DNA of 64,000 bases from Bilabrum cf. latius (Eukaryota), in assembly GCA_965178125.1 (NCBI GenBank), contig OZ237739.1, positions 496,001-560,000 on the forward strand, read 5' to 3'. The stretch's first letter is position 1; the number at the start of each line of letters is the position of its first letter. The notes beneath the pieces were generated by a model. It did not search any database, was not told where the DNA came from, and saw only the letters and a list, made by a program, of their open reading frames with translations. Positions 34,701 through 55,934 of this stretch are shown here, piece after piece. The position numbers and the translations under genes were made by a program.

Positions 34701-37700
34701 AGTTACATTGTCCCAGGCAGGCTGGCTGTCGCCAATATCACGGTGGCGGATGTCAAAGCTGATCTCGATAGGATCGTAGCCTTGCACATAGCTGGTGTTG
34801 GAAGTCACCGCAAACTGCTCATACCTCAGGTCAGCATCCCTTGCTTTGTAAACCTCGATCGTCGAGGTGTTCGCGAGAATCCACTCAGACTCTGCACCAC
34901 TAGCCAGCGGGCGGGTAAATTCGAGAGTGCTAATGAGAGCGGATGCCGAGCCAATCCAGCTGTCGGTGCCAGACGGGAAGACCAGCTGAACGTCCCAGGT
35001 CATGGTATCGTTCTCGCTGTCAGTGTTGTCGCAATCGTTCAGAATGTTGCCAAGAACTGCTTGAGCCAGTCCACTCCGAGCCGAGCGATCTATTGCAGAG
35101 CTATCGAGAATGAGGTTGCTGCCGAGCCGACTAAGGTGAGGACGAGTCCGCACCACTAATGCATCTGCGACGCCATTCCGTGTCAGCACCGTGAAGTTCA
35201 GTCGCAGCGACGACACAAACCCCTCTGGTACCTATATAGTCGTGGTAAGGTTGAACACTTCGCCGTCAGCGAGGTCAATGCTGGCTGTTCCTTCTTGCGT
35301 GTACTGGTTGTCGCTGCTTCCCGGCGTGATCACGGACTGCACGACAGGAATGCCAGTTTCAATTCCGAATGCATCCTCTTCAAACTCCAACCTCCGCGCT
35401 ACGAACGTAGGTGAACCTGGCTGGGTAGAGTACCCTGCGAGATAGCAGTTGACCCCTCTGCTGCTCGACGTGAACCCCTGGTTGCCAGACGGACCTACAG
35501 CGCTTCCGATCGGGATGTCCATCGTGATCATGCGCACCTCGTCAGGCCCTTTGCTGTTGGGCAGGCCTTCGATCGTTGGGAACATGAACGAAATGTTCGT
35601 AAAGGCTCCGCTCTACATGATTGTCATGGTTGTGGGCGGACTCAACAGCAAGCCCTCGCCATCAGAGACGTACGTATTGAGGGTCCCGGGAGCGGGCAAG
35701 TCCACGGCAGCAGTCGCGTTGGTGCTGAGCAAGCTCGGGTCGCGACCATCTGCGAGCAGAAAGATCCGCTCCATCTCACATATGACCTCGACATTCCGAC
35801 CAGGAAAGTTTCCGGTATTTGCGACGGCCACTCCAAGCGTGACTACGTCGCAGGCGTCGATTCCCGTGAGATTGACCGACGGCATGTCGACCGCGTCGTC
35901 GACATCAATGGAAGAACCTGGAAAACGGAATCCAGACGAGCCAGGCTCCGAAATGTTGACAAAAGGCGTTCCAACAAACCCAGCTCCAAGAGAAGGTGGC
36001 TGTACCAGGGGAGCAAAGCTGCCGCCAGCGACATTACCCCTAAATGTCAGCATCGAAGTTGCCACCTATATGTTCGGATTCCGTATAACCGTAGCAGCCT
36101 GAACGGGCGCCGGACTCGCCAATGAACCCTCTTGTGGCTGCGAAATTGACAAAACGCGCGCGCCAGCTCCAACGCGAGACTGCGTCGCGGCGAGGGTGTA
36201 GATGAGCTGGATCTTGGTGGCTCGACGGAGAGTGTCCTTGTAGCCCTGAGGCCATGTGGCCACGATGATCTGCGAGTCCAAGTCCACCGTCACGTCTGGA
36301 ATCAGGCCTGATATGTTGTAAAACGTATCATTCTGGCCAATTCGCATGCTGTTAACCTGTGGAACGCCGGTTTGGAGCACCCCTTTCACAAGATCAGCAG
36401 AAATGTCCCGAGAAGCAATCCCGCCGGTACGCAGCACAGGAAACGGCGGCCAGATGCGAATCGTAAGGCTTGGAAAGCTCGAAAACGGTAGCGTATACTC
36501 GGCAAGGTACGTCGCATTTTCGTTCGGCTCGATAAACTCTCCGTTGCAGGGATCGCATACCACTCCGTCGGTCGCGTACAGCACATGACGCTCTGTGCCA
36601 ACGGGCAGAGAGAGGCTCGCGCCGGCTGACGACGTCCCAGCTCTGAACGCGGAACACTGCGCATAGAATGGCTCCCATGGCTCAGAAAAGTTTGCGTTCA
36701 TCGAGAAATTTGCAGGATCGCAGGCCGTGTACCGGAGCAGCGCGTTCTGCGGCAGCCCGATGCCGTGCTCGAGGCGGATGCCGTTGCTGTCGAACTCATT
36801 GATCGTGGATGTCCACTGCAACTGGCATGTCGCTCCATCCAGCCGTAAAGGCGCCACGTACCCGCTCTCGTTCAAGGCCTCTTGAATGGCGGCCCCTATC
36901 TCGAGCGTGCCGACGATGGTTTTGTTCAGCACGGCGAACTGGGACGTGTTGCCGATCTGCTGCGGGGTTGGGCTCATGGCCAGGTAGCCGTTGGCCAGGG
37001 TGAAATCAAGCCCATTAATTTCGTTGGGCTGCTCGTCCTAACAGGACATGGACACCACGAATGCACCTGGGTCGATCTTGTACCCCGAAGGCATGCTGAT
37101 CTCCGCCTGGAGGTCGGTAAAGTTCAGGTAGTCGGTAAGCCTGAACTAGAACGTCGATGTGACCAGGTTGCTGATGGCGTTCCCGCCCGTAGCGACGAGC
37201 GAGAGGCTACTGTCCACCGCCTCCCAGGTGACCGCGACGCTAGCGTTTGGCTTGGCCTGCTGCGTCATGTTGTAGTCCCCGAAGGGCTTGGTCTGGGCGG
37301 CCACATCGGTGAACCGGATCTGGGTGGAGCCTGTCAGCCGGTTGTCGGAGGCTTTGAAGGCAAGAACTCCTCCGCTGGATTCCCGCAGTATCTTGAAATC
37401 CACCCTGATTCCGGCAGATCCGGTGGTGCTGGCTGTAGATGCCATCCCTGTGGTGTTGACGAACAAGGGGGTGCCTGCATTGGCGTCGGCAACGGTGCCT
37501 CCGAGCTGCACGGCAGCGACGGAGGAACCGATCGCGGTGATGGCGGTCACCTCGATCGATTCAGGCGCGCGAAGCACCATTCCTGCCGCCCCCGCCTAGA
37601 AGCCCGACTCTAGCACGAGCTGCGCCTCGGCGCTGCGCGAGAAAGTCTCGCTCAGAGCGTCCTCCAGCCCGCCCGCCTTGCCCCCACCCGAACTTACAAA

Positions 37701-38164
37701 ACTCAAGACTAGCGGATTCACCGTGGCTGTCTGAGTCCAGTTAGACGCGAACGTGTCGTTGCACCCCTCCTCCAGCAGGGGGCGTGGGACCAGGTTGCCC
37801 GAGGCGCTCAGCCCCTGGGCGAAACCGCCGCGGAAGTAGACGTCGAATGGCGCCACGTTCGCCTTGAGTGTAGTGCCAGCGTGTGAGATAACAACTTCAG
37901 GAAAATCCGGAGACACCGTTATCAGACCAAGTCGATAGGTCACGAGCGCACTGCCTGGTGTGCCGCACACCTGACGGAGGTCCTCATCGAAGCTGTTCAG
38001 GAGGACTGGATGGTCCACGCACGACGGCTCTCCTGCGACGGGGGGAGGGAATACTTGAACCGTTTTTTCCACATCGCCAGCGAATATTGTTGCGCCGCCG
38101 CTGAGATCCAGAGCAACTTGCAACTGGCTGCCCGTCGGCGTTGCCACATCGACCTCGGGAACCA
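1..38164 (-). CDS. Giant repetitive surface/adhesin-like protein (more than 12,600 aa in window; 3' end beyond left edge, 5' exon unresolved) built of tandem DUF11/fimbrial-like beta-sandwich modules; TAG read as sense
   Basis: The long minus-strand ORFs from 38198 to the gap (37596, 37146, 36066, 35613, 35232, 33939, 33567, 32619, 31830, 30945, 29643, 28812) share one frame. I read the linkers by hand and found 26 TAG and no TAA/TGA. Left of the gap the 974-aa ORFs are joined by one TAG per 2,943-bp unit (ELTAVL*LAEGTLVGSS). An in-frame TGA at 38214-38216 and a pyrimidine-rich acceptor (ctttaccattttctccgatttcgcag, AG at 38166-38165) suggest an upstream intron. The protein is Val/Ser/Gly-rich with many N-x-S/T sequons. 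Confidence 0.85.
28041..28240. other. Assembly gap (200 N) within the repeat array
   Basis: Run of 200 N. Both flanks are repeat-unit sequence, so the frame change across it and the true copy number cannot be interpreted. Confidence 0.99.
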
Positions 38165-38918
38165 CTGCGAAATCGGAGAAAATGGTAAAGCTTGCCAACC
38201 ACCATTGTGTGTATCATAATGGATGTTTCGAGTAGATGACAGGAATGAGTTTGTCGACATTGGATGTCTCAAGCAGCACCGAGCGAGCGAGCGAGCAAGA
38301 CGTGATGATAGGTATCCACGAATAGCCACAAAGCGTAGCGACCTGTGTATACGCTCCATAATGTATGCTTCAGTTCACGAGAATCGCGAGGTGCATACAA
38401 GTAGCGCAACGAGCGAAGGTGAGGAGTCTAGCACCGCGCCGAAGAGCACTTGTCAAGTGAAACAGAGCTCACTGAAGTCAACAAAAGGGTTGAACCCGAT
38501 ACTGCTCCCAGCATTGTCAAACAACAGCTATAATCCAGTGTCCTATCCCGGTGATTGGTCGCCACTTCCCCTCGAAATAGCTGTAGAGGGGACCGAGTTT
38601 GAGTGTGCTATGTGTACACTTGCGGCAGCGACGGCAAGCTGAAGAAGCCACATTGGCCCAATCTGTCCTAAGTAACACTTTATTTGTATCGCTCAAAAAG
38701 CTTGTATGGCTCCGTAGAGGCTGTGCTTCTCGAAATTCTCGAGCCAAGGGCCGAGAGGTGCTCGCAAAACTGCCTTTTCCGCCGCCACATGGTCGCCTTG
38801 CGACCAACTGTTCGGATTTGGTGCGTGGGCCTCGCGAGCTCAATGCTTGCGCGACAAGAATGGTACTTTGACAGATAATTCGAAAAAAGACTCGTACGAT
38901 CGGAAGGCATGGCTGCGA

Positions 38919-40937
38919 TCACACGGACCACACTTTGTACAGGGCGATGCTGCCGTTCCCGGGAAGGGTGGCCTGGAGCGCGTCCGACTCCGGGTTGATC
39001 GTCCCGGGCACGTCCTGGCCAGCGAAGAGGTCCCTGGCTCGCAGCTGCACCCCCGCAGTCACGGGAGGAACCAGAGCGAGGCAGTGCCCGGATTCCTTCG
39101 CGCGCATCGTGCCGTCCGTCCTCAGCTCGACCTGCTGGTTGTCGCCCTGGTTGCACTCCCACGCGTCCGCAAACGAAGTGTTGAACTCCCACTGATCCAG
39201 ACAAAGGTCTGCATTCAGCGCGGAAGACAGGCTCCCGAACCCGGACCCGGGCCCGAAGGCGCTGCCCTGGGAGGGCGTCCACTTGAGGTCGTCTGCCCTG
39301 CACTTGGACTGGTCCCCCGAGCAGATCTGCACCTCGAGGCCCGTCCCGCTCTGGCCGTCGCAAGACACCGCCAGGCACCTGTCCAGCCTGCCACCGCGGT
39401 TGCGAAACTGCACCTGGCCATCGAGCCTCTCGCCCAGGTGCGCACTCGTCACACCGTCCGAGGACAGAATCTCCCACTGCTGCAGCGGGTCGCTCGGGTC
39501 GCACGACTCGCTCCAGTACACTGCCTCGAAGCCGGAGTGCGGCAGGTTCGACTTGCCCTCGCCCGCCACGCCGGGCTGCAGCACCGCGTTGCCCCACCCG
39601 CCAGTCAGGGTCATGGCACCGCCGGGGCCCCGGATGGCCGCTGCCTCCTTCTAGACGGCCTCCCATGCCTCATCAGCGAGGTCATCCGCGTGCACGCCCT
39701 GGCGCCAACCGGCGGCCTCCAGGCGAGCCCTCCGCGCCTGCACCTGTTCCTTCGTCTCTAGCTTGAGGCGACCCCAGCACTCCGGCCCGCACTTGACCGT
39801 GGACTCACCCGCGTTGTTGTTTAGCAGAGCCACCGCCCAGCTGCCGTCCACAAGCGGCCTCGCCCAAACGTTCGTGCCCCCGAGGGAGTTCAGGTCCTCG
39901 CCCACCACCCTCATGCCCTGAATGCCCATGGGGTCCTAGTCCACCGCAATGACCTCTGTGTTGCCCCACTGGCTCATGAAGGGCTCGCCCACCCCGTCGG
40001 GACCGACGTCCGCGCTGATGATCAAGGGCGCTGCCATGACGGACCACATGCCCATCTGGGACTTGGACTGGCCGGCCGTCTGGTACCACTGGTTGTTGTT
40101 GGAGGCATTCACTCGGGCGGAGAGGCGGTCATCGCGCTGCTCCTGGTCCCTGCCGCTGTTGAGCGGGCCGGTGGAGCCCGTGCCGTCTCCTTGCAGCAGG
40201 TCTGGGTCGTTCCAGCCCCCGGGCCCCGCGTACATGCCAAGGTACGCGTTTGCGTTGATTGCAGTGATGAGGTAGTACCAGTTGCGGCCATCTCCGTCCA
40301 CTCTCCAGAGATTTCCTATAGAATTGCCCTCTTCCGCAAAGTAGGGGTGCCACCCGCACAGCGAAAACACGATCGGCCGACCGGTCTCGTTGAAGGAATC
40401 ACGCCACAACTCGTACTGCTTCAATGCGGTCGGCTGGTCCTGCGGCGCGCCGCACGAATCGATCTTGGCATAGTCCGCCCCGCAGCTTGCAAAGTACTGC
40501 GCGTCATTCTTTTCGTGTCCCTCGGATCCGGGGGCGCTATAGTAGCTGGTCCCGCACTGCCTCGTGCCACGGCTTGTGTATAGTCCGTACGTTAGATGGC
40601 GAGTCTTGCCGTTCGCATCGATGTAACTTTGGTTGTGGATCCAGTCACCGAGAGACTTCATCCCGAACGGAAACTTGCCAGACTCCACTATGATGTCACC
40701 TGAGGCTGATCGCCCCTTCAGCCAGCCTTCATCAACGTGAACGCCGCCATAGCCAGCCTTTGCTAGACCAGATTTGATCAGAGCACCCGCGATGTAGCGC
40801 ATGCGCTGGTCCGTCACGTTGCTCGAACGGTCGTTCCAACTCGAGTACGCCATCGGAGGCGTTCGCGCAAGGCCATTGTTCAGAGCAACGGCAACACCAC
40901 TAAGTGCAACGCAAGAAAGTATGAGCGCTTGCCGCAT
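38919..40937 (-). CDS. Secreted glycoside hydrolase family 27 (alpha-galactosidase/alpha-N-acetylgalactosaminidase-like) with ricin-B (CBM13-like) lectin module; 672 aa, 2 internal TAG
   Basis: Signal peptide followed by LNNGLARTPPMAYSSWN, VDEGW, DYAKIDSC (nucleophile motif), WRVDGD (acid/base), GPGGWNDPDLL, WSVMAAPLIISAD and NTEVIAVD*DPMGIQG. Three ORFs lie in one frame, joined at TAG 39936 and 39651. Ends at TGA 38919-38921. Confidence 0.93.
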
Positions 40938-41207
40938 ACCCTGTGCGCAAGGAAGAGGCTGTTGACGTTAATTGTGTCCAGCAGAAGTGCTGCAGAACCC
41001 TGGGATTGATGATGAGAAGGAAAAGCAATCACATGATAGACCTGGAGGGCTCAGTATCTCCGAGTTCATGCGCGAATGCACAGTGCGTGGTGTATAGACC
41101 AAGCACTCAAGCAGGACGCACAAGGCAGCACGGACTGTAGCTCAGCCCGCAGCTCTGCTCGAACAGCCCCGCCGCTTGCGTGGAGCCGCCCAGTCCCAAG
41201 CTCACCA

Positions 41208-42248
41208 TCAGCACGATCGGCTGATGGGAACGTTCAAGTAGTGCAGGTGATCGCTGACCGAAGTGGGGAAATCCAGCGAATCGCTGCAGGATGAGTCCTC
41301 CCCCGACCCGTCGCAGACCTTGTACGAGCTAGAGTCCTCCGTGTACCACACCTCCTGCGACGTGTGGTGGAAGCCCACCAGCTCCGGGGGCAGGTGCGGC
41401 ACGATATCGGCGTAGTGTACCACCCTGTACCACGTCCCCAGGGGCACCCGCTCCTAGAACGTGCTCGCATACGTCGAATCGCCGTCCCGCGGCTGCCCGA
41501 ACGAGTACCCGCTGACAGAGTACCCCAGGGCCTGCAGGTCGAAGGCGCACAAACCGGCCATCGCGGCCCCGAGGGAGTGCCCAGTAATATACACCGTGGA
41601 GCCGGGACCGAAGCCCATCGACTGCAGCGAAGCAAGCACGCCCCCTCGCAACAGGTCGTAGCTCTGCACGAAACCGTCGGCGACCTCGCAGCCGCTGCAG
41701 CCCTAGCGGGGGTACGGGACGTGCTTGATCGCCTTGATATCCTAGATCCTGCGGGGTGAGCTCAAGATACTAAAAAGGACTGAATCAACGGTGCACTGCG
41801 CCACACGCATGGGAAAGCTGCTTGGTCGCAAGGGGGCGGCTCACCAATTTTCGATGTTCGAAGTTCCCCTAAAGCTGACAATCGCCGCATTTTCGTTGCT
41901 GAGCTTTGCAGTAAATCCGCGAACGTCTTCCCCCGCATGGTAATGCACTCGTAAAGTAGAAACATCAACTGGAACGTGCTGGCAAGCCTCGCACGTCCAG
42001 TTCAGCAAGGTACTGTTGTCACAGTATGCAGCCGCAGACAAATACACGAACTAGAGCGCAGTGTTGGGGTCATAGCTGGCGAGGGCTGCGAAACACGAGC
42101 CAAATGAAACGCAGTTAATGTGAGAACTGGTTGCAACTAGGTAGCAATACCGCACTTCAAGCGATGCAAGAAACAATGCTGCATGATTCTCACCCTACGT
42201 ACTAAGAATTACCGCAAGAGCACCGGCTAGTACCTGAGGCACCCGCAT
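41208..42248 (-). CDS. Secreted class 3 lipase (alpha/beta hydrolase); exons 42248-42194, 42085-41845, 41748-41208; 278 aa, 5 internal TAG
   Basis: Spliced product reads MRVPQVLAGALAVILST*ALASYDPNTAL*FVYLSAAAYC...VSFRGTSNIENWI*DI...ITGHSLGAAMA...YSFGQPRDG...RVVHYADIVPHLPP...DHLHYL. Ser-Asp-His motifs are intact and intron phases are consistent. Ends at TGA 41208-41210. Confidence 0.93.
41749..41844 (-). other. Spliceosomal intron 2 of lipase (96 nt, phase 2)
   Basis: Donor TG|GTGAGC and acceptor CCCCGCAG|G. Removing it restores NIENW-I*DI in frame. Confidence 0.9.
42086..42193 (-). other. Spliceosomal intron 1 of lipase (108 nt, phase 1)
   Basis: Donor G|GTGAGA and acceptor TTTCGCAG|CC. Removing it joins the signal peptide to the mature N-terminus in frame. 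Confidence 0.85.
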
Positions 42249-42575
42249 ACTTGACGTGTATTGGGCCCGAGAATGTTTCCCTTGTCCTAATATACCAGAT
42301 TCTGTTCGGAAGTACTCGTTACACTGTTGCAAGCGGTCGCAAAAGTTGCCTGATAGATGAAAAGTGCAGCGAGGGAGTGGTTGAGCACGCGTAATAATTT
42401 CAGCTAGAACAGCCAATGTTTCAACTAGTGCTCCACAGGCCGTGGCAACCAGGAGGCTCTCGCGCACTCCGTAGGTGGCTGGGCCCGCGAACCGGGACAT
42501 GACATGGCTCGGCTCACTCGGTCAACGCGCATGGGGCGCGGGGCCACACAGCCCCGCCCGTCTCCCACAGCTGAC

Positions 42576-44159
42576 TCACTCCTCCGACTCGAGAGCCTTC
42601 ACCCCAGGCAGCCGCTCCCTCAGGTAGTAGTTCAGCAGCAGCCCCCTGGGATCGAGCTCCCTGCGGATGGCCTCGAAGGACCCGATAGCAGAGGCCGGGT
42701 ACACCCTGGCCGTCTCCTGCGCCGTGGCATCGTTCCACTTGCCCCAGTGCCAGCGGCCCCCAAGCGGCTTGGCCAAAGAGGCGAGGGTGTCTGCGTACTG
42801 GTGGAACACGCTGAAGGGCCCGGTGCGGTTGGCCGTCCCCAGCGTGATCACAGAGACGACCCCGATGTCCTGGCCGTTCATTGGACTCAGCGCGACGTCG
42901 TCCGCCGCCACATATCGCATCCCGGTGAACAGGGCAAAGTCGGGCTCCCCCGGGGAGGGGTTCGCGGGGGGCTGCGGCAGCGAACCTTCGGCGAGGTTCA
43001 CCTGCTGGATGAGGCCATGCGCCTTGTCCACGGGCACGAAGTACTCCTCCTCCGTGTAGCGGATAGGGTCGTCGGCAGGGTGCGCCAGGGCCTTGAAGCT
43101 CCAGTCCACGCACACGGTGGAGGGACCCGAGGGGCGGGGCATCGCGCCGGGGCTGGCAGCTGCAGCTGCAGCGACGCCGATGCCCGAGGGGGGGTGTGCC
43201 CCGAATGGCGTCCTCAGGGCGGGCGGCTGCCTGCTGTCGCTCGCGAGCTGCCTGCCCGTGAGCCGCTCCATGTCCTCATGTGCGTGCCTGAGTGGGTCCA
43301 CGCCACGGACCACCAAACCAGCGGGTTCGGAAGGTGTGCCATCGTGCGATGCAGCTGCACCGGAGGGCCAACAAGGCACGATGGTGCTGTTGAGAGGTAC
43401 GGGCTCGCGGAGCAGCAGAGTGGCGTTCTGCGTGTGCGGGGTCCAGTACCACTACATGCGGTCGAATTGGTCGTAAATAGAAGGGATTGCGGGCATCAGG
43501 TCGCCCAGCAGGTACGGCGTGGCGGTCCGCCTGAGCTTGAAGGCCGGGACGGTCCGCACCGTGACGCGAACAACGACGCCCAGAGCACCAAGGCCCACCC
43601 TGGCTACCTTCAAAATGTCCGGTCGCTAATCTGCCTTCTCTGATACGTCCAATATCGTGCCATTGGCGAGGATAAGGCGCATGCCAACAATTGTCGTTGC
43701 CATCGAGCCGAGATGCTTGCCGGTGCCGTGGGTGCTTGTTTGCGTCGCGCCCGCGATGCTTTGCTGGGCAATGGCCCCCGTATTCGGCAGGGCCAGCTGC
43801 TTGGCGAGCAAAGCATTATTTAGTTCATATACCCTGATCCCAGCCTGCACGGTCACGTCTGCCCCTGGCTTGCCGTCGCCGCGAGCCGCAACACTCAGCA
43901 CGCTCTTCAGGGCATCAAGCTGTAGCATCACGCCCTCACTCAATGGAATGGCCGAAAAGCTATGTCCCGCCCCAACCGTTTTAATTGAAACCCCCATCTT
44001 GCTGGCGGAAGTCACCGCTTCGATGACTTCCTCCTCGCTCTTTGGGTGGACCAAACGCTGGGGCCAGCACTGCTAGCGCCCATCCCAATTCTGCCAATAG
44101 TCAGCAGACACGCACAACAGCGAAATCGACGCCAATAGCACGAATGATAGGACTCTCAT
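42576..44159 (-). CDS. FAD-linked aldonolactone oxidase family protein (L-gulonolactone/D-arabinono-1,4-lactone oxidase-like) with signal peptide; 527 aa, 3 internal TAG
   Basis: Motifs WQNWDGR*QCWP...P.SEEEV, VGAGHSFS (flavin-linking His motif), QSIAGATQTSTHGTG, GLGALGVV, GGRWHWGK and RRELDPRG. Single frame with TAG at 44073, 43626 and 43452. Ends at TGA 42576-42578. Confidence 0.92.
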
Positions 44160-44471
44160 GCCTCTGCGCAGGCAGACTTTGCTCGATCTGTTTTGCGGTT
44201 CGCAGCGGTAAATAAGGAACCGACTGGAACGTTCGCCTTCAGTTTCGCAGCCAGCCGAACTGCAGCCTTCAGAACTCTTCACTGCTGCCCGATTAAACAA
44301 AAATCATAAGATTCAACTGATTTTTTGTGGCTTATCTTGCTAGAACCAAAACTGCTGCTTGTATACGCCACTCATAGCACGCTATCGGCAGCCAAGCATA
44401 GCGACCAAACCGACGCACAGCCAAGCATTGCGACCTCGCGAGGCCAAGACCAACGACAAGGCGGATCCGCG
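44160..44471. promoter_or_regulatory. Probable bidirectional promoter region (312 bp)
   Basis: Short spacer between divergent start codons (44159 minus, 44472 plus) with an AT-richer core at about 44292-44345. No specific motif identified. Confidence 0.4.
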
Positions 44472-47400
44472 ATGGAATTGGGTGATTACACACTCTCACA
44501 GTAGAATGGAACGCATAATGGCACTGTAGCACCGTTTTTCTTGCGGCCGTGGGAGGGGCTGGCGGTCTGGGTGTGGCTGGTCTTGCTTGCAGTAGCCACT
44601 ATCGGATGCATCATTGGGTGTGTGTGCTGCAGCTACTGGTTGTGCGGTGCTAATCACCAGAGGGCAAAGTCGGATACGCCAGGCAGTGAAGACCACGATG
44701 CTCTTGTGCCTCTGCTTGCTGGCAACCCCTAGCAGACCGATGAATTACCACCAGCGACAGATCCTTACGACGGAAGCGCTATGCAAGCATCAGACGATGC
44801 AAGTTGGAAGAGTTCACTTGTGGAGCGTGTCAGGCCGGTACCAAAACGCCCTGCCGTGCGGTACGCAGACCAAGCAGCGAACCTGCCGGCCGATCGGCGC
44901 TGTGTGTCTGCGACCAGTTCAAGATCCGAGGGCTCGGTGCATAAAGTGGATGAAGAATCAGACTATCTGCTAGACACTGCGGTCACTGAGTAGCGCATTC
45001 CCCCGACCAGAGCCTCACGATCCAAAGCGCCCGACTCCGTGCGCGGGGCGGTAGAGCACACTACAACCGCGACGGATGAGCACTGGCCTGTTTCGGATGC
45101 CTCGCAGGCGGGCAGCACGGGCGTGCCTGTGGCCATACCACCCAGAGACCCAGCGGAGGTCGCTATCCCGAGCTCCTCGCCTAATGCGAAGCCTCGCTCC
45201 ACGAGCTCTCGCGCGGGGGGCTCCATCGGTGGCAGTTTGCCTGGCCGACGTGGCCTCGTAACTGCTCCAAGCGCGTTCAGGTACCGGGATCCGTGCGAGT
45301 CGGTCAGTCCAGAGAACAGCTCGCTAAATGGTACGAATCAGTAGACACCACACTCAAACGATTCAAGGCGGCATGGTTCCGCCACTCAGTCAAGGCATAG
45401 CATGGAGGCTGCCGGACCGGCAACCGAACCAGCACAAGAACCACATTCCGAGCCAATCAGCCAGACGCACGACATGCTAGCCCCAGACACTCGCCAAGCT
45501 CTCGTACCAACAAATGGCGCCGCAAAAACAACAGGAAACATACAACGAAGACCCGACGACAACCGTGGCAGTGTGGCTGAGCCGGACAGGGATGGCGGGG
45601 AGGCGGCCACAGCTGACGCTGGCACTGGCACTGGCAGTGGCAGTGGGTCTGTGACTGGCCCCGAGGGCGAGGATGGCGGTGTGGCTGAGCCGGACAGGGA
45701 TGGCGGGGAGGCGGCCACAGCTGACGCTGCCACTGGCACTGGCAGTGGCAGTGGGTCTGTGACTGGCCCCGAGGGCGAGGATGGCGGTGTGGCTGAGCCG
45801 GACAGGGATGGCGGGGAGGCGGCCACAGCTGACGCTGGCACTGGCACTGGCAGTGGCAGTGGGTCTGTGACTGGCCCCGAGGGCGAGGATGGCGGTGTGG
45901 CTGAGCCGGACAGGGATGGTGGGGAGGCGGCCACAGCTGACGCTGGCGCTGGCACTGGCACTGGCAGCGGGTCTGTGACTGGCCCCGAGGGCGAGGATGG
46001 CGGTGTGGCTGAGCCGGACAGGGATGGCGGGGAGGCGGCCACAGCTGACGCTGGCACTGCCACTGGCACTGGCAGTGGCAGTGGCAGTGGGTCTGTGACT
46101 GGCCCCGAGGGCGAGGATGGCGGTGTGGCTGAGCCAGACAGGGATGGCGGGGAGGCGGCCACAGCTGACGCTGGCAGTGGCAGTGGGTCTGTGACTGGCC
46201 CCGAGGGCGAGGATGGCGGTGTGGCTGAGCCAGACAGGGATGGTGGGGAGGCGGCCACAGCTGACGCTGCCACTGGCACTGGCACTGGCAGTGGGTCTGT
46301 GACTGGCCCCGAGGGCGAGGATGGCGGTGTGGCTGAGCCGGACAGGGATGGCGGGGAGGCGGCCACAGCTGACGCTGGCGCTGGCACTGGCACTGGCAGT
46401 GGGTCTGTGACTGGCCCCGAGGGCGAGGATGGCGGTGTGGCTGAGCCGGACAGGGATGGCGGGGAGGCGGCCACAGCTGACGCTGGCACTGGCACTGGCA
46501 GTGGCAGTGGGTCTGTGACTAGCCCCGAGGGCGAGGATGGCGGTGTGGCTGAGCCGGACAGGGATGGCGGGGAGGCGGCCACAGCTGACGCTGCCACTGG
46601 CACTGGCAGCGGCAGTGGGTCTGTGACTGGCCCCGAGGGCGAGGATGGCGGTGTGGCTGAGCCGGACAGGGATGGCGGGGAGGCGGCCACAGCTGACGCT
46701 GCCACTGCCACTGGCAGTGGCAGCGGCAGTGGGTCTGTGACTGGCCCCGAGGGCGAGGATGGCGGTGTGGCTGAGCCGGACAGGGATGGCGGGGAGGCGG
46801 CCACAGCTGACGCTGGCGCTGGCACTGGCAGTGGCAGTGGCAGTGGGTCTGTGACTGGCCCCGAGGGCGAGGATGGCGGTGTGGCTGAGCCGGACAGGGA
46901 TGGCGGGGAGGCGGCCACAGCTGACGCTGGCACTGCCACTGGCACTGGCAGTGGGTCTGTGACTGGCCCCGAGGGCGAGGATGGCGGTGTGGCTGAGCCG
47001 GACAGGGATGGCGGGGAGGCGGCCACAGCTGACGCTGCCACTGGCACTGGCAGCGGCAGTGGGTCTGTGACTGGCCCCGAGGGCGAGGATGGCGGTGTGG
47101 CTGAGCCGGACAGGGATGGCGGGGAGGCGGCCACAGCTGACGCTGCCACTGCCACTGGCAGTGGCAGCGGCAGTGGGTCTGTGACTGGCCCCGAGGGCGA
47201 GGATGGCGGTGTGGCTGAGCCGGACAGGGATGGCGGGGAGGCGGCCACAGCTGACGCTGGCACTGGCAGTGGCTCTGGCAGTGGGTCTGTGACTGGCCCC
47301 GAGGGCGAGGATGGCGGTGTGGCTGAGCCGGACAGGGATGGCGGGGAGGCGGCCACAGCTGACGCTGGCACTGGCACTGGCACTGGCAGTGGGTCTGTGA

Positions 47401-50400
47401 CTGGCCCCGAGGGCGAGGATAGCGGTGTGGCTGAGCCGGACAGGGATGGCGGGGAGGCGGCCACAGCTGACGCTGGCACTGCCACTGGCACTGGCAGCGG
47501 CAGTGGGTCTGTGACTGGCCCCGAGGGCGAGGATGGCGGTGTGGCTGAGCCGGACAGGGATGGCGGGGAGGCGGCCACAGCTGACGCTGCCACTGGCACT
47601 GGCACTGGCAGTGGCAGTGGGTCTGTGACTGGCCCCGAGGGCGAGGATGGCGGTGTGGCTGAGCCGGACAGGGATGGCGGGGAGGCGGCCACAGCTGACG
47701 CTGGCACTGGCAGTGGCAGTGGCAGCGGCAGTGGGTCTGTGACTGGCCCCGAGGGCGAGGATGGCGGTGTGGCTGAGCCGGACAGGGATGGCGGGGAGGC
47801 GGCCACAGCTGACGCTGGCACTGGCACTGGCAGTGGCAGTGGCAGTGGGTCTGTGACTGGCCCCGAGGGCGAGGATGGCGGTGTGGCTGAGCCGGACAGG
47901 GATGGCGGGGAGGCGGCCACAGCTGACGCTGCCACTGGCACTGGCACTGGCACTGGCAGTGGGTCTGTGACTGGCCCCGAGGGCGAGGATGGCGGTGTGG
48001 CTGAGCCGGACAGGGATGGCGGGGAGGCGGCCACAGCTGACGCTGGCACTGCCACTGGCACTGGCAGTGGGTCTGTGACTGGCCCCGAGGGCGAGGATGG
48101 CGGTGTGGCTGAGCCGGACAGGGATAGCGGGGAGGCGGCCACAGCTGACGCTGGCGCTGGCAGTGGGTCTGTGACTGGCCCCGAGGGCGAGGATGGCGGT
48201 GTGGCTGAGCCGGACAGGGATGGCGGGGAGGCGGCCACAGCTGACGCTGCCACTGGCAGTGGCAGTGGCAGTGGGTCTGTGACTGGCCCCGAGGGCGAGG
48301 ATGGCGGTGTGGCTGAGCCGGACAGGGATGGCGGGGAGGCGGCCACAGCTGACGCTGCCACTGGCAGTGGCAGTGGCAGTGGGTCTGTGACTGGCCCCGA
48401 GGGCGAGGATGGCGGTGTGGCTGAGCCGGACAGGGATGGCGGGGAGGCGGCCACAGCTGACGCTGGCACTGGCACTGGCAGTGGCAGTGGGTCTGTGACT
48501 GGCCCCGAGGGCGAGGATGGCGGTGTGGCTGAGCCGGACAGGGATGGCGGGGAGGCGGCCACAGCTGACGCTGCCACTGGCACTGGCACTGGCAGTGGCA
48601 GTGGGTCTGTGACTGGCCCCGAGGGCGAGGATGGCGGTGTGGCTGAGCCGGACAGGGATGGCGGGGAGGCGGCCACAGCTGACGCTGGCGCTGGCAGTGG
48701 CACTGGCACTGGCAGCGGCAGTGGCAGTGGGTCTGTGACTGGCCCCGAGGGCGAGGATGGCGGTGTGGCTGAGCCGGACAGGGATGGCGGGGAGGCGGCC
48801 ACAGCTGACGCTGCCACTGGCACTGGCACTGGCACTGGCACTGGCAGCGGGTCTGTGACTGGCCCCGAGGGCGAGGATGGCGGTGTGGCTGAGCCAGACA
48901 GGGATGGCGGGGAGGCGGCCACAGCTGACGCTGGCGCTGGCAGTGGCACTGGCACTGGCAGCGGCAGTGGCAGTGGGTCTGTGACTGGCCCCGAGGGCGA
49001 GGATGGCGGTGTGGCTGAGCTGGACAGGGATGGCGGGGAGGCGGCCACAGCTGACGCTGGCAGTGGCAGTGGCAGTGGCAGTGGCAGTGGCAGTGGGTCT
49101 GTGACTGGCCCCGAGGGCGAGGATGGCGGTGTGGCTGAGCCGGACAGGGATGGCGGGGAGGCGGCCACAGCTGACGCTGCCACTGGCACTGGCAGTGGCA
49201 GTGGGTCTGTGACTGGCCCCGAGGGCGAGGATGGCGGTGTGGCTGAGCCGGACAGGGATGGCGGGGAGGCGGCCACAGCTGACGCTGGCACTGGCAGTGG
49301 CAGTGGCAGTGGCAGTGGGTCTGTGACTGGCCCCGAGGGCGAGGATGGCGGTGTGGCTGAGCCGGACAGGGATGGCGGGGAGGCGGCCACAGCTGACGCT
49401 GCCACTGGCAGTGGCAGTGGCAGTGGGTCTGTGACTGGCCCCGAGGGCGAGGATGGCGGTGTGGCTGAGCCGGACAGGGATGGCGGGGAGGCGGCCACAG
49501 CTGACGCTGGCGCTGGCAGTGGCACTGGCACTGGCAGCGGCAGTGGCAGTGGGTCTGTGACTGGCCCCGAGGGCGAGGATGGCGGTGTGGCTGAGCCGGA
49601 CAGGGATGGCGGGGAGGCGGCCACAGCTGACGCTGCCACTGGCAGTGGCAGTGGCAGTGGGTCTGTGACTGGCCCCGAGGGCGAGGATGGCGGTGTGGCT
49701 GAGCCGGACAGGGATGGCGGGGAGGCGGCCACAGCTGACGCTGGCACTGGCAGTGGCAGTGGCAGTGGGTCTGTGACTGGCCCCGAGGGCGAGGATGGCG
49801 GTGTGGCTGAGCCGGACAGGGATGGCGGGGAGGCGGCCACAGCTGACGCTGCCACTGGCACTGGCACTGGCAGTGGCAGTGGGTCTGTGACTGGCCCCGA
49901 GGGCGAGGATGGCGGTGTGGCTGAGCCGGACAGGGATGGCGGGGAGGCGGCCACAGCTGACGCTGGCGCTGGCAGTGGCACTGGCACTGGCAGCGGCAGT
50001 GGCAGTGGGTCTGTGACTGGCCCCGAGGGCGAGGATGGCGGTGTGGCTGAGCTGGACAGGGATGGCGGGGAGGCGGCCACAGCTGACGCTGGCAGTGGCA
50101 GTGGCAGTGGCAGTGGCAGTGGGTCTGTGACTGGCCCCGAGGGCGAGGATGGCGGTGTGGCTGAGCCGGACAGGGATGGCGGGGAGGCGGCCACAGCTGA
50201 CGCTGGCACTGGCACTGGCAGTGGCAGTGGGTCTGTGACTGGCCCCGAGGGCGAGGATGGCGGTGTGGCTGAGCCGGACAGGGATGGCGGGGAGGCGGCC
50301 ACAGCTGACGCTGCCACTGGCGCTGGCAGTGGCAGTGGCAGTGGGTCTGTGACTGGCCCCGAGGGCGAGGATGGCGGTGTGGCTGAGCCGGACAGGGATG

Positions 50401-53400
50401 GCGGGGAGGCGGCCACAGCTGACGCTGCCACTGACGCTGGCGCTGGCAGTGGCAGTGGCAGTGGGTCTGTGACTGGCCCCGAGGGCGAGGATGGCGGTGT
50501 GGCTGAGCCGGACAGGGATGGCGGGGAGGCGGCCACAGCTGACGCTGGCAGTGGCACTGGCACTGGCAGCGGCAGTGGCAGTGGGTCTGTGACTGGCCCC
50601 GAGGGCGAGGATGGCGGTGTGGCTGAGCCGGACAGGGATGGCGGGGAGGCGGCCACAGCTGACGCTGCCACTGGCACTGGCAGTGGCAGTGGGTCTGTGA
50701 CTGGCCCCGAGGGCGAGGATGGCGGTGTGGCTGAGCCGGACAGGGATGGCGGGGAGGCGGCCACAGCTGACGCTGCCACTGGCAGTGGCTCTGGCAGTGG
50801 CAGTGGGTCTGTGACTGGCCCCGAGGGCGAGGATGGCGGTGTGGCTGAGCCGGACAGGGATGGCGGGGAGGCGGCCACAGCTGACGCTGCCACTGGCAGT
50901 GGCAGTGGCAGTGGGTCTGTGACTGGCCCCGAGGGCGAGGATGGCGGTGTGGCTGAGCCGGACAGGGATGGCGGGGAGGCGGCCACAGCTGACGCTGGCA
51001 CTGGCAGTGGGTCTGTGACTGGCCCCGAGGGCGAGGATGGCGGTGTGGCTGAGCCGGACAGGGATGGCGGGGAGGCGGCCACAGCTGACGCTGGCGCTGG
51101 CACTGGCAGTGGCAGCGGCAGTGGGTCTGTGACTGGCCCCGAGGGCGAGGATGGCGGTGTGGCTGAGCCGGACAGGGATGGCGGGGAGGCGGCCACAGCT
51201 GACGCTGCCACTGGCAGTGGCAGTGGCAGTGGGTCTGTGACTGGCCCCGAGGGCGAGGATGGCGGTGTGGCTGAGCCGGACAGGGATGGCGGGGAGGCGG
51301 CCACAGCTGACGCTGGCACTGCCACTGGCAGTGGCAGTGGCAGTGGGTCTGTGACTGGCCCCGAGGGCGAGGATGGCGGTGTGGCTGAGCCGGACAGGGA
51401 TGGCGGGGAGGCGGCCACAGCTGACGCTGGCGCTGGCACTGGCAGTGGCAGCGGCAGTGGGTCTGTGACTGGCCCCGAGGGCGAGGATGGCGGTGTGGCT
51501 GAGCCGGACAGGGATGGCGGGGAGGCGGCCACAGCTGACGCTGCCACTGGCAGTGGCAGTGGCAGTGGGTCTGTGACTGGCCCCGAGGGCGAGGATGGCG
51601 GTGTGGCTGAGCCGGACAGGGATGGCGGGGAGGCGGCCACAGCTGACGCTGGCACTGCCACTGGCAGTGGCAGTGGCAGTGGGTCTGTGACTGGCCCCGA
51701 GGGCGAGGATGGCGGTGTGGCTGAGCCGGACAGGGATGGCGGGGAGGCGGCCACAGCTGACGCTGCCACTGCCACTGGCAGTGGCAGTGGCAGTGGGTCT
51801 GTGACTGGCCCCGAGGGCGAGGATGGCGGTGTGGCTGAGCCGGACAGGGATGGCGGGGAGGCGGCCACAGCTGACGCTGCCACTGGCACTGGCAGTGGCA
51901 GTGGGTCTGTGACTGGCCCCGAGGGCGAGGATGGCGGTGTGGCTGAGCCGGACAGGGATGGCGGGGAGGCGGCCACAGCTGACGCTGCCACTGGCAGTGG
52001 CAGTGGCAGTGGGTCTGTGACTGGCCCCGAGGGCGAGGATGGCGGTGTGGCTGAGCCGGACAGGGATGGCGGGGAGGCGGCCACAGCTGACGCTGGCACT
52101 GGCAGTGGCACTGGCACTGGCAGCGGCAGTGGGTCTGTGACTGGCCCCGAGGGCGAGGATGGCGGTGTGGCTGAGCCGGACAGGGATGGCGGGGATGCGG
52201 CCACAGCTGACGCTGGCACTGGCACTGGCAGTGGCAGTGGGTCTGTGACTGGCCCCGAGGGCGAGGATGGCGGTGTGGCTGAGCCGGACAGGGATGGCAG
52301 TGTGGCTAGTAATGTGGATGCTAGCCGCGGAAGGGTGCGATAGCTGCCGATGCTGTCCCTATAGACTGGGTCTGTATCGAATGCGCCAAATTTGCCAAGA
52401 GTTGGTGTAAATGTCAGCGGGACTTCTACTCGAGGCGAAGATCCTGATGAGATCGCTACAAGGCGGCACAGGCGAGTGAAATCAACCATGCTTCGAGGAT
52501 TCGTGCAAGCATATGGCCGGTCCGTAGGAAGTTTGGCAGCCAAGCCAAAGCGGAAGCCGTTGCCGTAGTTGGCAATTGGTACTGAAGATCCGGATGCAGA
52601 GATGACACCTTAGGCCCCGTCGGTCCCTCGAAGGCTGTCTCTGTCCGGAGGCACTGCTGCTTCCGGTGCAGCCCCTAGGGATGTGTCGAGCGGTGCAGAC
52701 CCCGTCGATAGTGGTGCAGGTGTCGATTCGGAGGATGACGAAATGGTAATGCCGTCAAAAGACGACGTGTTTTTCGCTCTGTTCCACCACTACGCAGCTA
52801 CTGGGGACCCAACCCACACGAATACGATGAACAATCAACAGTTCAGGAACTTTACTCTGGATGCAGGTATCAGCTCACTTAGTGTCAAGCATGGATCTAG
52901 CAAACGAATGCATGCTAGGGACGCCGATGGTGAGGCGGACTCAGAAGTGCCGGCTTCGGCCCAGAGAACCCGGCGGTCGTCGCTGTCATCGCAAGCAAGC
53001 TCAGGCCCGGACGCCTCGCTGGCTCGGCGGTCCCAAGGGACTAGATCCAGGCGGTCCTCTATCGGCAGGTCGTCAAGTGCACAGTAGAGTACTGGAGGCA
53101 GCGGAAGGCCGCGGGTGCGCCGAGTGCTCGCTGCAGAGCTCGACATTTTATTCCAAACCGCTGCCAAGCGGAAGGCAGGAGCTGGCACCATCAGGCTACT
53201 TCAAGGAGGGGAAGGCGCTGCTTCTCGCAGTGGGCTCATTTCGCAAGGACAGTTCGCAAAAAAGGGTTCCTCTAGGAATTTAAGCGTAGAGCAGTTCGTA
53301 TCGTGCTTGAGGAAGCTCGCGATCAAGCTGTATCCGCAGCTGAAGCCCACGTCAAGAGCCATGGATCGAATGTACGACGACCTGCTCCTACCACTGGCCT

Positions 53401-54206
53401 TGAGAGAGGCGCAGAAGATGCAGGCGGTTCGAGAGAGGATTCACAGGTCGGATTCAGCCGCCGGAACCCACGGTACAGCTGCACGCGGGGCCATGGCTGA
53501 CCTCGCCGATGACCGGGTTGGGGTTGTGCGCACCTCGTCGGCACTTCTACTGGGCCATGGAGGAAGTACTGGTGACCGACCACGCGGTATACCGTCCAGA
53601 TCCCCGGACGAAGACGTTTCTGCCTCTGAGCTTCGTGCACCCGAGGGCATCTCTGCCTTGGTGAAGCAGAACAGGGCACCTGTCCGAACGGTCTTCATGC
53701 ACTATACCGGCGGCGACGAGTGGATGACCACTGCTCAGGCACTACAGTTCGCAAAGCACTTTGGCATTGTTCCTGAGCTGGTGAATCTGGCTACCTTTCA
53801 GGAGACGACGGAAAGCATGCATCGCATGGTGGCGGCGGAGGCAGCAGAGCATGAAGCGGGGTTGGGGCCCGGATCGGCGCGGCGTGCATCAAGCGGGGGC
53901 AAGACGGGCTCGAAGCAAAGGTCTGACAAGCTCGTCGCGGGCATTCTGAAGAGCGCAAAGTTCGTGGACATGCTGTCCGGAAGGGACTTCGTCACGCTGC
54001 TACTCAGGTTTGGTCGCTCTTGTGGGGCATCCCTGCCAGTTCCTATGCAAGGAGCAGGCAGCGTATCTTAGTCAACTTAGGGCTAGGAGGTAGCATAGCT
54101 GCGCGCACTGCTGCACCATATGAACAAGTCTCAAGGTTGGGACAGGTTGCAGCGAGCACGCGGAGCTCGACAAGCAACTTCGAAGGTAGCCGAGTTTGTG
54201 ACGTAA
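44472..54206 (+). CDS. 3,244-aa single-pass membrane protein: short N-terminus, TM helix, Cys cluster, about 2,240-aa acidic Gly-rich repeat, C-terminal TPPP/p25-alpha- or EF-hand-like region; 13 internal TAG
   Basis: One frame from ATG 44472 (MELGDYTLSQ*NGTHNGTV) through ORFs 44541, 44781, 45039, 45402, 52683 and 53115 to TAA 54204-54206, with only TAG in the linkers. TM segment LAVWVWLVLLAVATIGCIIGCVCCSYWLC. C-terminal motifs LFHHYAATGDP..MNNQQFRNFTLDAGI, ELDILF and LSVEQFVSCLRKLAIKLYP. Confidence 0.8.
45573..52298 (+). repeat. Coding minisatellite of about 60 units: constant 84-bp core plus a variable run of 6-bp motifs
   Basis: Each unit encodes VAEPDRDGGEAATADA-(GT/GS/AT/GA)n-GSVTGPEGEDGG with n about 2-7. 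All length changes keep the frame. Copy number is estimated from total length. Confidence 0.97.
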
Positions 54207-54460
54207 TCGGAATGCCTTGGCGCGGACCTAGCATTCCATGTTTATTCATTTATTCTGTAGATCATCATGATAAGAAGTTGATGTGCCTGCTTGACTATGA
54301 TGCAACCTCCAGCTTTGCGTGTTCTGCGGCCTGCACCGGCTACTATAGATCGCTGCCAAATTTCGACGCTTTTTTTTACTGCATTCTTATACCACATAAA
54401 AATTAATGTATTCTTTAACATTCTCATTTGAATACCATGCGTGACGGTTGTATCGTAGCC

Positions 54461-55578
54461 ACGGGGAAATACAGAAATACAGAAATACATTGTTGGGTTA
54501 AGTTACCGAACCCGCCACAGATGCACCATATCTCAGGTGATCACCTGCAGCGGTAGGAGCCCTCATAAGAGGACTACAAGACCCCCGACCCTTTCAGACC
54601 AAAGGCCCCCCATGTACCGGCCCTGATGTTGGGACCTCCCTTTGTCGCCTTCAAGCCCTCCTTCGCAGCAGTCCCGGAGCCTTTATTTCGGATATCCGTA
54701 GACACACAGGCATACTGCGTGGACCCGGCATTATGCGCGGTCCAGACCCACCACGGAGTGCCCCTCCAGCCTCCGACGTCACTTCCAGGATCGTCCGGAC
54801 TCGCGATCCCTCTGAGGGTCGAGCACGCACACAATCATGCTCGTCTCTGGAACTGTCAGCGTAAATATGTGAATAGTTCCGAGGCTCCCCCTCCTGGGAG
54901 TCTTCCCGAGCTCGGTGTCCCCGGGCCCGGCTGATATAGGTGGCACCAACGGTGCAGAAACCAATCGCCCTGCTCTCCGGCAGGTAGACCGGCGCCAAAG
55001 CATTAGATGCTAAGACTAGGGCTTCAAAGAACCCATTTTCTCCACAAGGGGAGAAATCCCGTGCTGAAATGACAGTACGGGCGTCGGAATAGGTGGCACC
55101 AACGGTGCAGAAACCAATCGCCCTGCTCTCCGGCAGGTAGACCGGCGCCAAAGCATTAGATGCTAAGACTAGGGCTTCAAAGAACCCATTTTCTCCACAA
55201 GGGAAGAAATCCCGTGCTGAAATGACAGTACGGGCGTCGGAGGCGGTAAACACCTTCCCGACCGTTTGGTCGTAGACCTTCCCGCGCACATCGGCGAACG
55301 GGCCATAACCACTTCGCAGCCCCCACAGGGATCTCGAGTGGAATCGAGAGCTATTTAGCTCTTCTTCCGCTGCGCAGACGACACTCCAGGACGCCTGAAC
55401 AGGGCTGTGCTGCTCAACCAGCACAGGCACCGAACCCGGTGCAGCCGACAATGCCAATCCAGGCGTCGGCTTCTCCCATCCCATAGGAAGGAAGAATATA
55501 GCCAAAGCACTATGTGCTAAGGCTAGGGCCCATAAAGGGTCCATCTCCCCCACCAGGAGATTTTTTTTTTACGGGGAA
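54461..55578. mobile_element. Probable non-autonomous or truncated mobile-element insertion (about 1.1 kb) with 8-bp flanking direct repeats
   Basis: ACGGGGAA occurs at 54461-54468 and 55571-55578. The inner left end is (GAAATACA)x3 and the inner right end is T10 (55561-55570). It contains a 153-bp duplication and no recognisable transposase or RT. Confidence 0.5.
54936..55241. repeat. Tandem duplication, 2 x 153 bp
   Basis: 54936-55088 and 55089-55241 are identical apart from one substitution that I could see (ggggag vs gggaag). Confidence 0.95.
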
Positions 55579-55934
55579 TAATTACAATTGTACGGTGATG
55601 TTTTGGCAGACAGTCTGGTTTGTGCTGATCGACGGACGGACCATAGTTTGCATCGCAGACGCACCAAAAACTGCAGTAAACCTAAGTGTCGACAGTCGAG
55701 CCTATTGAAACTATGCCTGGATACAGTAAAGCCCCATGGATGACCGGGTCATATCTCGGTGAGGGCTTCATTCTTACCAATGCACCATTCTGCGACCCAG
55801 CCGAGATTGTCATCCCGATTTGTGCCCTCTGGACTCCAACACACTACTAAAATGCGGTGTTTCCGTGCATATGTACACGGTTTGATGGCAAAGCCAAGCA
55901 GGTTACGTATAGGCTGTCCTTCCGTGGGAGGACC

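Follow-up and report, generated by a model that had tools for sequence, protein, structure and literature searches.

A candidate variant nuclear code with UAG alone as sense, most likely for glutamine, in a GC-rich eukaryotic window

INTRODUCTION

Nuclear genetic codes in which UAG and UAA have parted company were first described in 2017, for an uncultured rhizarian (UAG as leucine) and for Iotanema (UAG as glutamine, with UAA as the dominant stop) (PMC5304391). Since then UAG-only codes have been described in at least five lineages (PMC5304391, PMC11687900, PMC8271138). A tRNA with a CUA anticodon is predicted in the first of these papers, to which PMC9161772 also attributes the GTS to GGS change in the eukaryotic release factor 1 (eRF1) of Iotanema. 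Among the ciliates, Protocruzia and several phyllopharyngeans are described as reading UAG as glutamine or leucine (PMC11687900), and one ciliate uses UAA for lysine and UAG for glutamate (PMC10553269, PMC11687900). In Amoebophrya sp. Kv, which is AT-rich, all three stops are sense codons (PMC12005148). In this study we analyse a stretch of 64,000 nucleotides labelled Bilabrum cf. latius (contig OZ237739.1 of assembly GCA_965178125.1, positions 496,001 to 560,000 of the forward strand), hereafter the window, in which the codon UAG appears to be read as an amino acid in every long gene. An earlier reading of the letters alone, which we call the original prediction, had proposed that UAG encodes glutamine here and that genes end only at TGA or TAA. 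It had also implied that a change of UAG without UAA is rare, and with at least five such lineages since 2017 (PMC5304391, PMC11687900, PMC8271138) that rarity was overstated.

The reading that explains our data best, and that we hold with moderate confidence, is a variant nuclear code in a compact, GC-rich and intron-bearing eukaryote: UAG is a sense codon, most likely for glutamine, UGA is the main stop, and UAA is kept out of reading frames and is most likely a stop as well. The kind of code is already known, and the mechanism put forward in the original prediction is the published one. Here we present the evidence for the single parts of this reading, the observations that speak against it and the alternatives that have to be weighed.

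RESULTS

Stop triplets in and out of frame

Read with the standard code the window is a patchwork of medium-sized open reading frames (ORFs); once TAG counts as sense, a small number of very long ORFs cover nearly all of it. Six long ORFs with 20,112 codons contain TAG 74 times in frame and have neither TAA nor TGA at any internal codon. The original prediction had stated that no in-frame TAA occurs in roughly 20,000 codons. As a count this is right, but the sample was overstated, as about 11,700 of the 20,112 codons belong to near-identical tandem repeats (positions 2-28040 and 45566-52298) and the independent sample, the non-repeat coding segments, has 8,376 codons.

In these 8,376 codons we counted 65 TAG, one TAA and three TGA, the TAA and the TGA all being terminal. 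Off frame, the same non-repeat DNA holds 74 TAG in frame +1 and 47 in frame +2, 30 and 29 TAA, and 182 and 177 TGA, respectively. TAG is thus similarly frequent in and out of frame, and TAA and TGA are shut out of the frame. Position-specific base composition predicts 52 TAA, 122 TAG and 42 TGA in frame for this number of codons, and in the flanks TAA occurs at 8.1 per kb. TAG makes up about 0.8% of codons, which would equal about 18% of the glutamine codons, and it is read through in every long gene of the window. The bases directly 3' of in-frame TAG (G 29, C 15, A 11, T 10) have the ordinary composition of codon position 1 and thus give no hint of a special context.

The absence of TAA can be compared with the use of two-fold codons ending in A and in G (CAA 89 vs CAG 213, GAA 112 vs GAG 289, AAA 54 vs AAG 170), in ORFs whose GC content at third codon positions (GC3) is 0.61-0.85. 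At the ratio CAA/(CAA+CAG) of 0.295, about 27 in-frame TAA would be expected were TAA synonymous with TAG. Finding none has a probability of P=1.4e-10 at the CAA:CAG ratio and of P=5.5e-6 at the lowest third-position A ratio (0.17).

Three further observations bear on the reading of TAG as sense. We scored codons by a log-likelihood trained on the window's own coding DNA (in-frame mean 0.30, intergenic mean -0.20). In the GH27 alpha-galactosidase-like gene (38919..40937, minus strand), with in-frame TAG at 39936-39938 (TAG344) and 39651-39653 (TAG439), the 233 codons past the second TAG have a coding score of 0.43; with so strongly coding an extension, read-through of TAG439 is directly shown. 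Among eight full copies of a 2943-bp repeat unit, to which we return below, the variants comprise 24 synonymous and 17 mostly conservative non-synonymous changes, a pattern of purifying selection. Finally, a database protein of 142 aa with 95% identity (P0016) spans residues 84-225 (43629-44054) of the oxidase described in the next section, that is, exactly the part between its TAG77 and TAG226. Judged by these borders, P0016 is evidently the product of a standard-code gene call on a close relative in which genes were fragmented at TAG.

We consider it highly probable that TAG and TAA are decoupled in the window, whichever amino acid TAG encodes. To this extent the decoupling claimed by the original prediction stands: UAG is sense and UAA is not (0 found, 27 expected). 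For UAA as a terminator, the other half of the claim, we infer a role from a single gene end that is not anchored by homology.

Ends of the enzyme genes

Three enzyme genes lie next to each other on the minus strand. The GH27 gene encodes a signal peptide and, beyond the beta-sandwich, a C-terminal extension of about 270 residues in which only a sub-threshold ricin-lectin match was seen; it ends at TGA 38919-38921. The class-3 lipase gene (41208..42247, minus strand) has five in-frame TAG and ends at TGA 41208-41210, and its alignment to a 269-residue lipase of the Protein Data Bank (PDB) stops six residues short of both ends. The third gene, for an FAD-linked sugar-1,4-lactone oxidase-like protein with the FAD_binding_4 and ALO domains (42576..44159, minus strand), has in-frame TAG at 44073-44075, 43626-43628 and 43452-43454 and ends at TGA 42576-42578; residues 46-566 of its 575 align to residues 30-532 of 533 in its best homologue, P0008.

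All three genes end at TGA and none at TAG, the lipase and oxidase ends being anchored by homologues, and no TAG lies near the homology-defined ends of these two. UGA terminates genes and is not sense, and it is the main terminator in the window. That the TGA codons come right after family-typical C-termini, as had been claimed, holds for the lipase and the oxidase, whose homologues end within a few residues; it does not hold for GH27 with its roughly 270 extra residues. In the window we found neither an internal in-frame TAA nor an enzyme gene ending at TAG (0 of 3), signs of the kind that the original prediction had named as speaking against it.

An intron of 96 nt in the lipase gene (41749-41844, GTGAGC...CGCAG) holds the only in-frame TGA of the gene. 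Alignments to PDB lipases cover both exons and run across the ...IENW/I... junction, and because this intron is supported by both exon alignments the window is, on the strength of its sequence, eukaryotic nuclear DNA. A putative first lipase intron, at about 42086-42193 (minus strand; GTGAGA...TTTCGCAG), directly follows a TAG in the region of the signal peptide. Being divisible by three in length and free of stops, it cannot be recognised from the ORF alone. As a side observation, the terminal TGA of the lipase is followed one codon on by a second in-frame TGA (TGA TGG TGA; 41200-41210, minus strand) and that of the oxidase 17 codons on (42528-42578, minus strand), with no TAG after either.

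Amino acid encoded by TAG

The strongest indications of the amino acid come from TAG codons on conserved columns. GH27 TAG344 aligns with the Q of VIAVNQD in all three displayed PDB alignments. For the oxidase we aligned 150 homologues from a full library scan and counted the 30 best separately. Among the latter, Q stands opposite TAG77 in 17 of the 25 sequences aligned there and opposite TAG284 in 23 of 28; the 150 homologues have Ser at these two sites in 0 and 2 cases, respectively. The third oxidase codon, TAG226, falls in a gapped region, with Q at that place in the best homologue P0008. Altogether three TAG lie on conserved Gln columns and none on a conserved Ser column.

The three enzymes were also scored against family profiles, with Q, S, E, L or X put in for TAG. 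The five best-matching family models all rank Q over S (Melibiase_2 101.1 vs 98.8, ALO 64.7 vs 63.6, Lipase_3 85.5 vs 85.2, TIGR01679 229.3 vs 225.7 and TIGR01678 199.1 vs 197.5), and Leu scores worst (Melibiase_2 98.3, Lipase_3 83.2, ALO 62.3). With an oxidase profile built from the 30 closest homologues, Gln is ahead of Ser by about 3.5 log10 at two sites. Variation among the 2943-bp repeat units adds two cases: a TAG in one unit stands where seven others have CAG, and a TAG in another unit where the others have GAG.

Other comparisons were less telling. Residue composition next to TAG was uninformative for Gln vs Ser, as was a classifier of flanking residues at TAG (best fits V, A, R, T), and where the giant minus-strand ORF can be compared with its own repeat unit by paralogy, TAG faces a mixed set (S, T, R, H, V, G, V, E). 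We take glutamine to be the probable meaning of UAG. This part of the original prediction is borne out by the conserved columns and the profile scores, and is at odds with a serine-like signal in one gene that is presented in the Discussion.

End of gene E

Gene E (44472..54206, plus strand) encodes a single-pass membrane protein with an acidic 108/222-bp repeat array. It has 13 in-frame TAG, and its first stop other than TAG is the TAA at 54204-54206 (plus strand), the candidate terminator. GC content falls from 0.56 in the 198 nt before this TAA to 0.43 in the 198 nt after it. Reading the TAA as sense would lengthen gene E by 25 codons, up to the next in-frame TGA at 54279, and these 25 codons have a GC3 of 0.41 and a frame-0 coding score of -0.32. 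UAA is likely still a working terminator, with gene E likely ending at TAA 54204. Gene E is the sole candidate for a TAA-ending gene, and the earlier statement that only one is visible was accurate; the positions and codons named at the time, from the three TGA of the enzyme genes to the TAG and TAA codons of gene E, are all correct.

Upstream of the TAA, by 36-45 codons, lies a cluster of TAG (54069..54098, plus strand) with four in-frame copies at 54069, 54078, 54084 and 54096 and an out-of-frame copy at 54091. The coding score is 0.48 at 53901-54005 and about 0 at 54006-54203. No Pfam family was found in gene E in a scan of ORFs, and its C-terminal 489 residues had no homologue among 8,000 scored candidates of 367-1169 aa, a range that leaves out longer and shorter forms. 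The cluster was also considered as part of an intron, for which the two lipase introns, both of the type GTGAG(A/C)...CGCAG, were the basis of comparison. This was rejected as unsupported: the nearest GT upstream of the cluster is CAG/GTTTGG at 54008, there is no GTGAG donor near, and possible acceptors shift the frame. None of the frames shows a coding signal between the TAG cluster and the next gene, gene F, that could mark a downstream exon.

Other features of the window

GC content varies between 51 and 71% along the window and is about 60% overall. The first part of the window is taken up by a giant ORF on the minus strand, of more than 12,700 codons in all. Its tandem-repeat part (2..28040, minus strand) consists of about 9.5 copies of the 2943-bp unit (981 codons) and continues past the window start. 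The units are near-identical, with about 10 differing positions each, and one TAG (phase 483) is present in all of them; the array has a strong GC skew of -0.25. The non-repeat part (28302..38213, minus strand; 3,304 codons) has 26 in-frame TAG, no TAA and no TGA, and its C-terminal third shares 29% identity with the 2943-bp unit. The frame break between the halves is due to an assembly gap of 200 N (28041..28240) inside the ORF. The TGA at 27972, the apparent end of the upper half, lies across this gap and is therefore not a real gene end. A Pfam scan of ORFs assigned no family to the giant ORF.

Gene F (55932..63998, plus strand) comprises the first 2,689 codons, the N-terminal part, of a giant protein of DUF3638/DUF3645 type that continues past the window end; it has 18 in-frame TAG, no TAA and no TGA. 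With a profile made from gene F and two homologues (55851-63998, plus strand), the best named relative is the Babesia ovata protein P0158 (886 bits), with fungal proteins at about 160-177. By sequence similarity this is a weak hint of an alveolate-like affinity of the family of gene F, and not a placement of the organism.

The array in gene E (45566-52298, plus strand) has about 60 copies counted as 108 bp or about 30 counted as 222 bp and encodes an acidic repeat rich in Gly, Ser, Glu and Asp. Its opposite strand is open in all three frames, which yields spurious ORFs of 2,300-2,400 aa. Genes E and F are separated by an AT-richer spacer, in which an ORF of 305 codons at 54651-55568 (minus strand) is free of TAG and ends at TGA; it has weak coding potential and no family match and is a candidate gene. 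A direct repeat of two 153-bp copies (54936-55241) overlaps it. As to poly(A) signals, TGTAA and AATAAA are each found in one of the four 3' flanks, a pattern that is not diagnostic.

No tRNA gene was detected in the window by ARAGORN, nor did a scan of the window with Rfam give a match, and a Pfam scan of the window's ORFs yielded no eRF1 gene. A search for DNA of relatives in genome contigs with the oxidase and gene F gave 45 and 15 pattern matches, respectively, of which none was confirmed.

DISCUSSION

Two groups of observations weigh against reading UAG as glutamine and UAA as a stop. The first concerns the amino acid and comes mainly from gene F, for which P0006, at 28% identity, is the only good homologue. 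Fifteen of the 18 TAG sites of gene F can be aligned to it, and they face S seven times, A three times, Q twice and P, V and C once each; the binomial probability for Ser at these sites is P=2.4e-4. When gene F is aligned with TAG masked as X the result is similar (S 6, A 3, P 3, C 2, Q 1, V 1; n=16). By comparison, the CAA/CAG sites of gene F face Q in 13 and S in 3 of 76 cases, and its serine sites face S in 47 of 171. Pairwise substitution models alone leave Ser about level with Gln overall, with Ser ahead by 0.5 log10. Two less-matched profiles slightly favour S over Q (NF053785 67.2 vs 66.4, TIGR01677 62.7 vs 62.3), and Glu scores about as well as Gln in ALO, Lipase_3 and TIGR01679.

The second group concerns the terminators. 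No more than four gene ends can be seen in the window, three at TGA and one at TAA, and the role of TAA as a terminator depends on this one end, for which no homologue serves as an anchor. The 66 codons before it (54006-54203) have a coding score of 0.006, which is below 98% of all in-frame windows. Moreover, four TAG within ten codons were reached in 0.24% of 20,000 permutations (P=0.0024), so the cluster is non-random, and a non-random cluster near a gene end is left unexplained by a plain sense reading of TAG.

The alternative that survives best assigns UAG to serine, as in Scotinosphaera. A tRNA-Ser(CUA) would read the codon, TAG would have arisen from TCG by a single C-to-A change, and UAA and UGA would both be stops. 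Such a code has a published precedent in Scotinosphaera, where TAG is described as serine with TAA and TGA as stops (PMC8271138). It would account for the data from gene F, where 12 of 15 TAG sites (14 of 16 when masked) have S, A, P or C opposite them in P0006, a profile that resembles the gene's own Ser sites and not its CAA/CAG sites. It also has the slight lead in the pairwise-model likelihood, and in the recurring ...[WYF]-x-[ST]-x-P motif of the giant protein two TAG stand where paralogous modules have A, T, S or G, as read by eye. However, the Ser signal of gene F derives from a single sequence of 28% identity, and the few other homologues that reach these sites have H, Q, L, R, K, Y and I there, and no S. 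The three TAG on columns dominated by Gln, with little or no Ser, the oxidase profile of the 30 closest homologues and the ranking by all five best-matching family models speak against serine as well. We regard serine as unlikely overall. In gene F the TAG codons nevertheless have a Ser-like ancestry, in conflict with the glutamine signal of the enzymes. One idea is that TAG at free sites arises from TCG, which leaves the scarcity of Glu and Gln ancestors unexplained; among the repeat-unit variants, G/T-type changes are the commonest transversion class (from a list read by eye).

A more complex view combines both signals, and we think it improbable. It would be an unsettled UAG-only code in an undescribed GC-rich non-ciliate lineage: UAG would be glutamine where enzymes require it, UAG in a giant protein would derive mostly from serine (TCG), decoding would be ambiguous, through competing CUA or near-cognate tRNAs, or else in transition, and clusters of UAG close to a gene end would act as leaky terminators before a UAA back-stop.

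Somewhat less probable still is a context-dependent or leaky UAG, sense inside genes and a full or partial stop at some gene ends, with gene E in effect ending at the cluster, whose TAG would act as tandem weak stops backed up by the TAA. Codes with ambiguous stop and sense codons are described for Condylostoma, karyorelicts, Blastocrithidia and Amoebophrya sp. Kv (PMC4967479, PMC12152300, PMC12005148), and both the non-random cluster and the fall of the coding signal from 0.48 to about zero from 54006 on would fit such a use. But this is one case only, and gene E is weakly coding along its whole length: scores as low as that of the tail are found in 17-23% of its own 66-codon windows, and scores as high as that of the tail in 15% of intergenic ones. 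The sharp drop in GC content comes at the TAA and not at the cluster, the base after TAG shows no special context, and no TAG is found near the homology-defined ends of the lipase and the oxidase, GH27 being terminated by TGA too. The cluster could be a low-constraint tail, or it could be a hint of residual termination.

We give even less weight to the possibility that UAA is avoided or unassigned rather than a working terminator, so that UGA would be the only efficient stop and TAA 54204 incidental. In its favour, the homology-anchored ends are all TGA (3 of 3), and the case for TAA as a stop consists of its absence from reading frames and one unanchored gene end. On the other side, the UAG-only lineages whose stops are described in the literature consulted all keep UAA as a terminator, and in Iotanema and the rhizarian UAA dominates among the stops (PMC5304391). 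In the window, composition shifts abruptly at TAA 54204, and a TGA:TAA ratio of 3:1 is what would be expected for a genome of 60% GC. To our knowledge, an eRF1 that reads UGA but not UAA occurs only where UAA and UAG (UAR) have been reassigned as a pair, which counts against this possibility.

A code with both UAR codons as glutamine, of the type of NCBI table 6, is very improbable. TAA would then be sense but rare through the high GC content, and gene E would end at TGA 54279. The GC3 of the ORFs and the single visible TAA gene end, past which read-through would add just 25 codons before a TGA, are compatible with it. A-ending two-fold codons are not rare, however, and no TAA beside 65 TAG is hardly expected even at the most GC-biased codon ratio. 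TAA is common off frame and in the flanks, and the 25 codons past TAA 54204 do not look like coding DNA by GC3 or coding score. Least credible of all is a standard code in which the in-frame TAG are artefacts of pseudogenes, of assembly or base-calling errors or of codons that RNA editing removes: a 200-N gap interrupts the scaffold and its long near-identical repeats are hard to assemble, but errors or decay would also give in-frame TGA and TAA (0 in 8,376 codons vs 42 and 52 expected), the repeat units are under purifying selection, an independent database fragment, from a relative with 95% identity, has its ends at the oxidase TAG77 and TAG226, and TAG lies on conserved Gln columns.

If UAG is glutamine and UAA a stop, a dedicated tRNA with a CUA anticodon, unable to pair with UAA, would read UAG, and a release factor blind to UAG would still recognise UAA and UGA, a mechanism that was also proposed for Iotanema. 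The end of gene E would lie at TAA 54204, and the final 45 codons of the gene, with the TAG cluster among them, may form a tail under weak constraint.

The result has a practical side, as standard-code gene calls on this genome cut genes at TAG and a table with TAG as sense is needed for its annotation; the P0016 fragment indicates that such cutting has already happened for a close relative. More generally, the old idea that UAA and UAG have to change jointly loses ground with every independent UAG-only reassignment. The disagreement between glutamine at conserved sites and the Ser-like ancestry of TAG in one gene is worth settling.

Comparison with known codes

Codes with UAR as glutamine (NCBI table 6 type) are used by many ciliates, by Dasycladales, Cladophorales and Trentepohliales, and by Hexamita, Streblomastix and Amoeboaphelidium. 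They are like the window in the change from stop to glutamine and in TGA as terminator, and unlike it in that TAA is sense there, with none here where about 27 would be expected. Amoeboaphelidium genomes are moreover reported at about 40% GC (PMC10608142), compared with about 60% in the window, which makes this genus an improbable source of the DNA; Amoebophrya sp. Kv, AT-rich and with all three stops as sense, is an improbable one too (PMC12005148). The probable table of the window is also that of code 15 (TAG as glutamine), described in Crassvirales and Lak phages (PMC9523058). These are bacteriophages, whereas introns of spliceosomal type, signal peptides and giant proteins of eukaryote type are found in the window.

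Among the nuclear UAG-only codes, that of the uncultured rhizarian exLh is described with UAG as leucine and UAA as a stop (PMC5304391); it is UAG-only as in the window, and Leu is the worst-fitting residue tested here. The green alga Scotinosphaera (Li et al. 2021) is like the window in that UAG is split from UAA and, probably, in that both TAA and TGA are stops, and the Ser-like profile of TAG in gene F resembles the TAG at conserved TCC/TCG serine positions described there (PMC8271138). In the window, by contrast, the TAG on conserved columns correspond to glutamine, no green-algal marker was found, and TGTAA occurs in one of the four 3' flanks.

Among ciliates, Protocruzia tuzeti and two phyllopharyngean lineages are described with UAG as glutamine and with UAA and UGA as stops, which is the probable table of the window and has had several independent origins (PMC11687900). 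The window showed no ciliate-like signs, and it is GC-rich and has genes of 10-30 kb on one long scaffold. Ciliate genomes are AT-rich, and phyllopharyngeans have gene-sized chromosomes. A GC-rich non-ciliate lineage in which only UAG is glutamine was not found in our searches of full-text literature, with most subscription journals and supplements outside their scope.

A close parallel outside the ciliates is Iotanema spirale, a fornicate (Panek et al. 2017). As in the window, only UAG is reassigned, apparently to glutamine, and UAA is not sense (PMC5304391, PMC9161772), and the mechanism published for it, a tRNA(CUA) together with a change in eRF1, is the one inferred in the original prediction (PMC5304391, PMC9161772). 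The two differ in their setting: Iotanema is an anaerobic gut flagellate for which transcriptome data are described, and the window is genomic DNA of about 60% GC with GTGAG...CAG introns and an FAD oxidase of O2-dependent type. They also differ in stop usage, with UAA described as dominant in Iotanema (PMC5304391) and TGA ending three of the four visible genes of the window. A GC-rich case with TGA as the main stop would complement those described with UAA as the dominant one.

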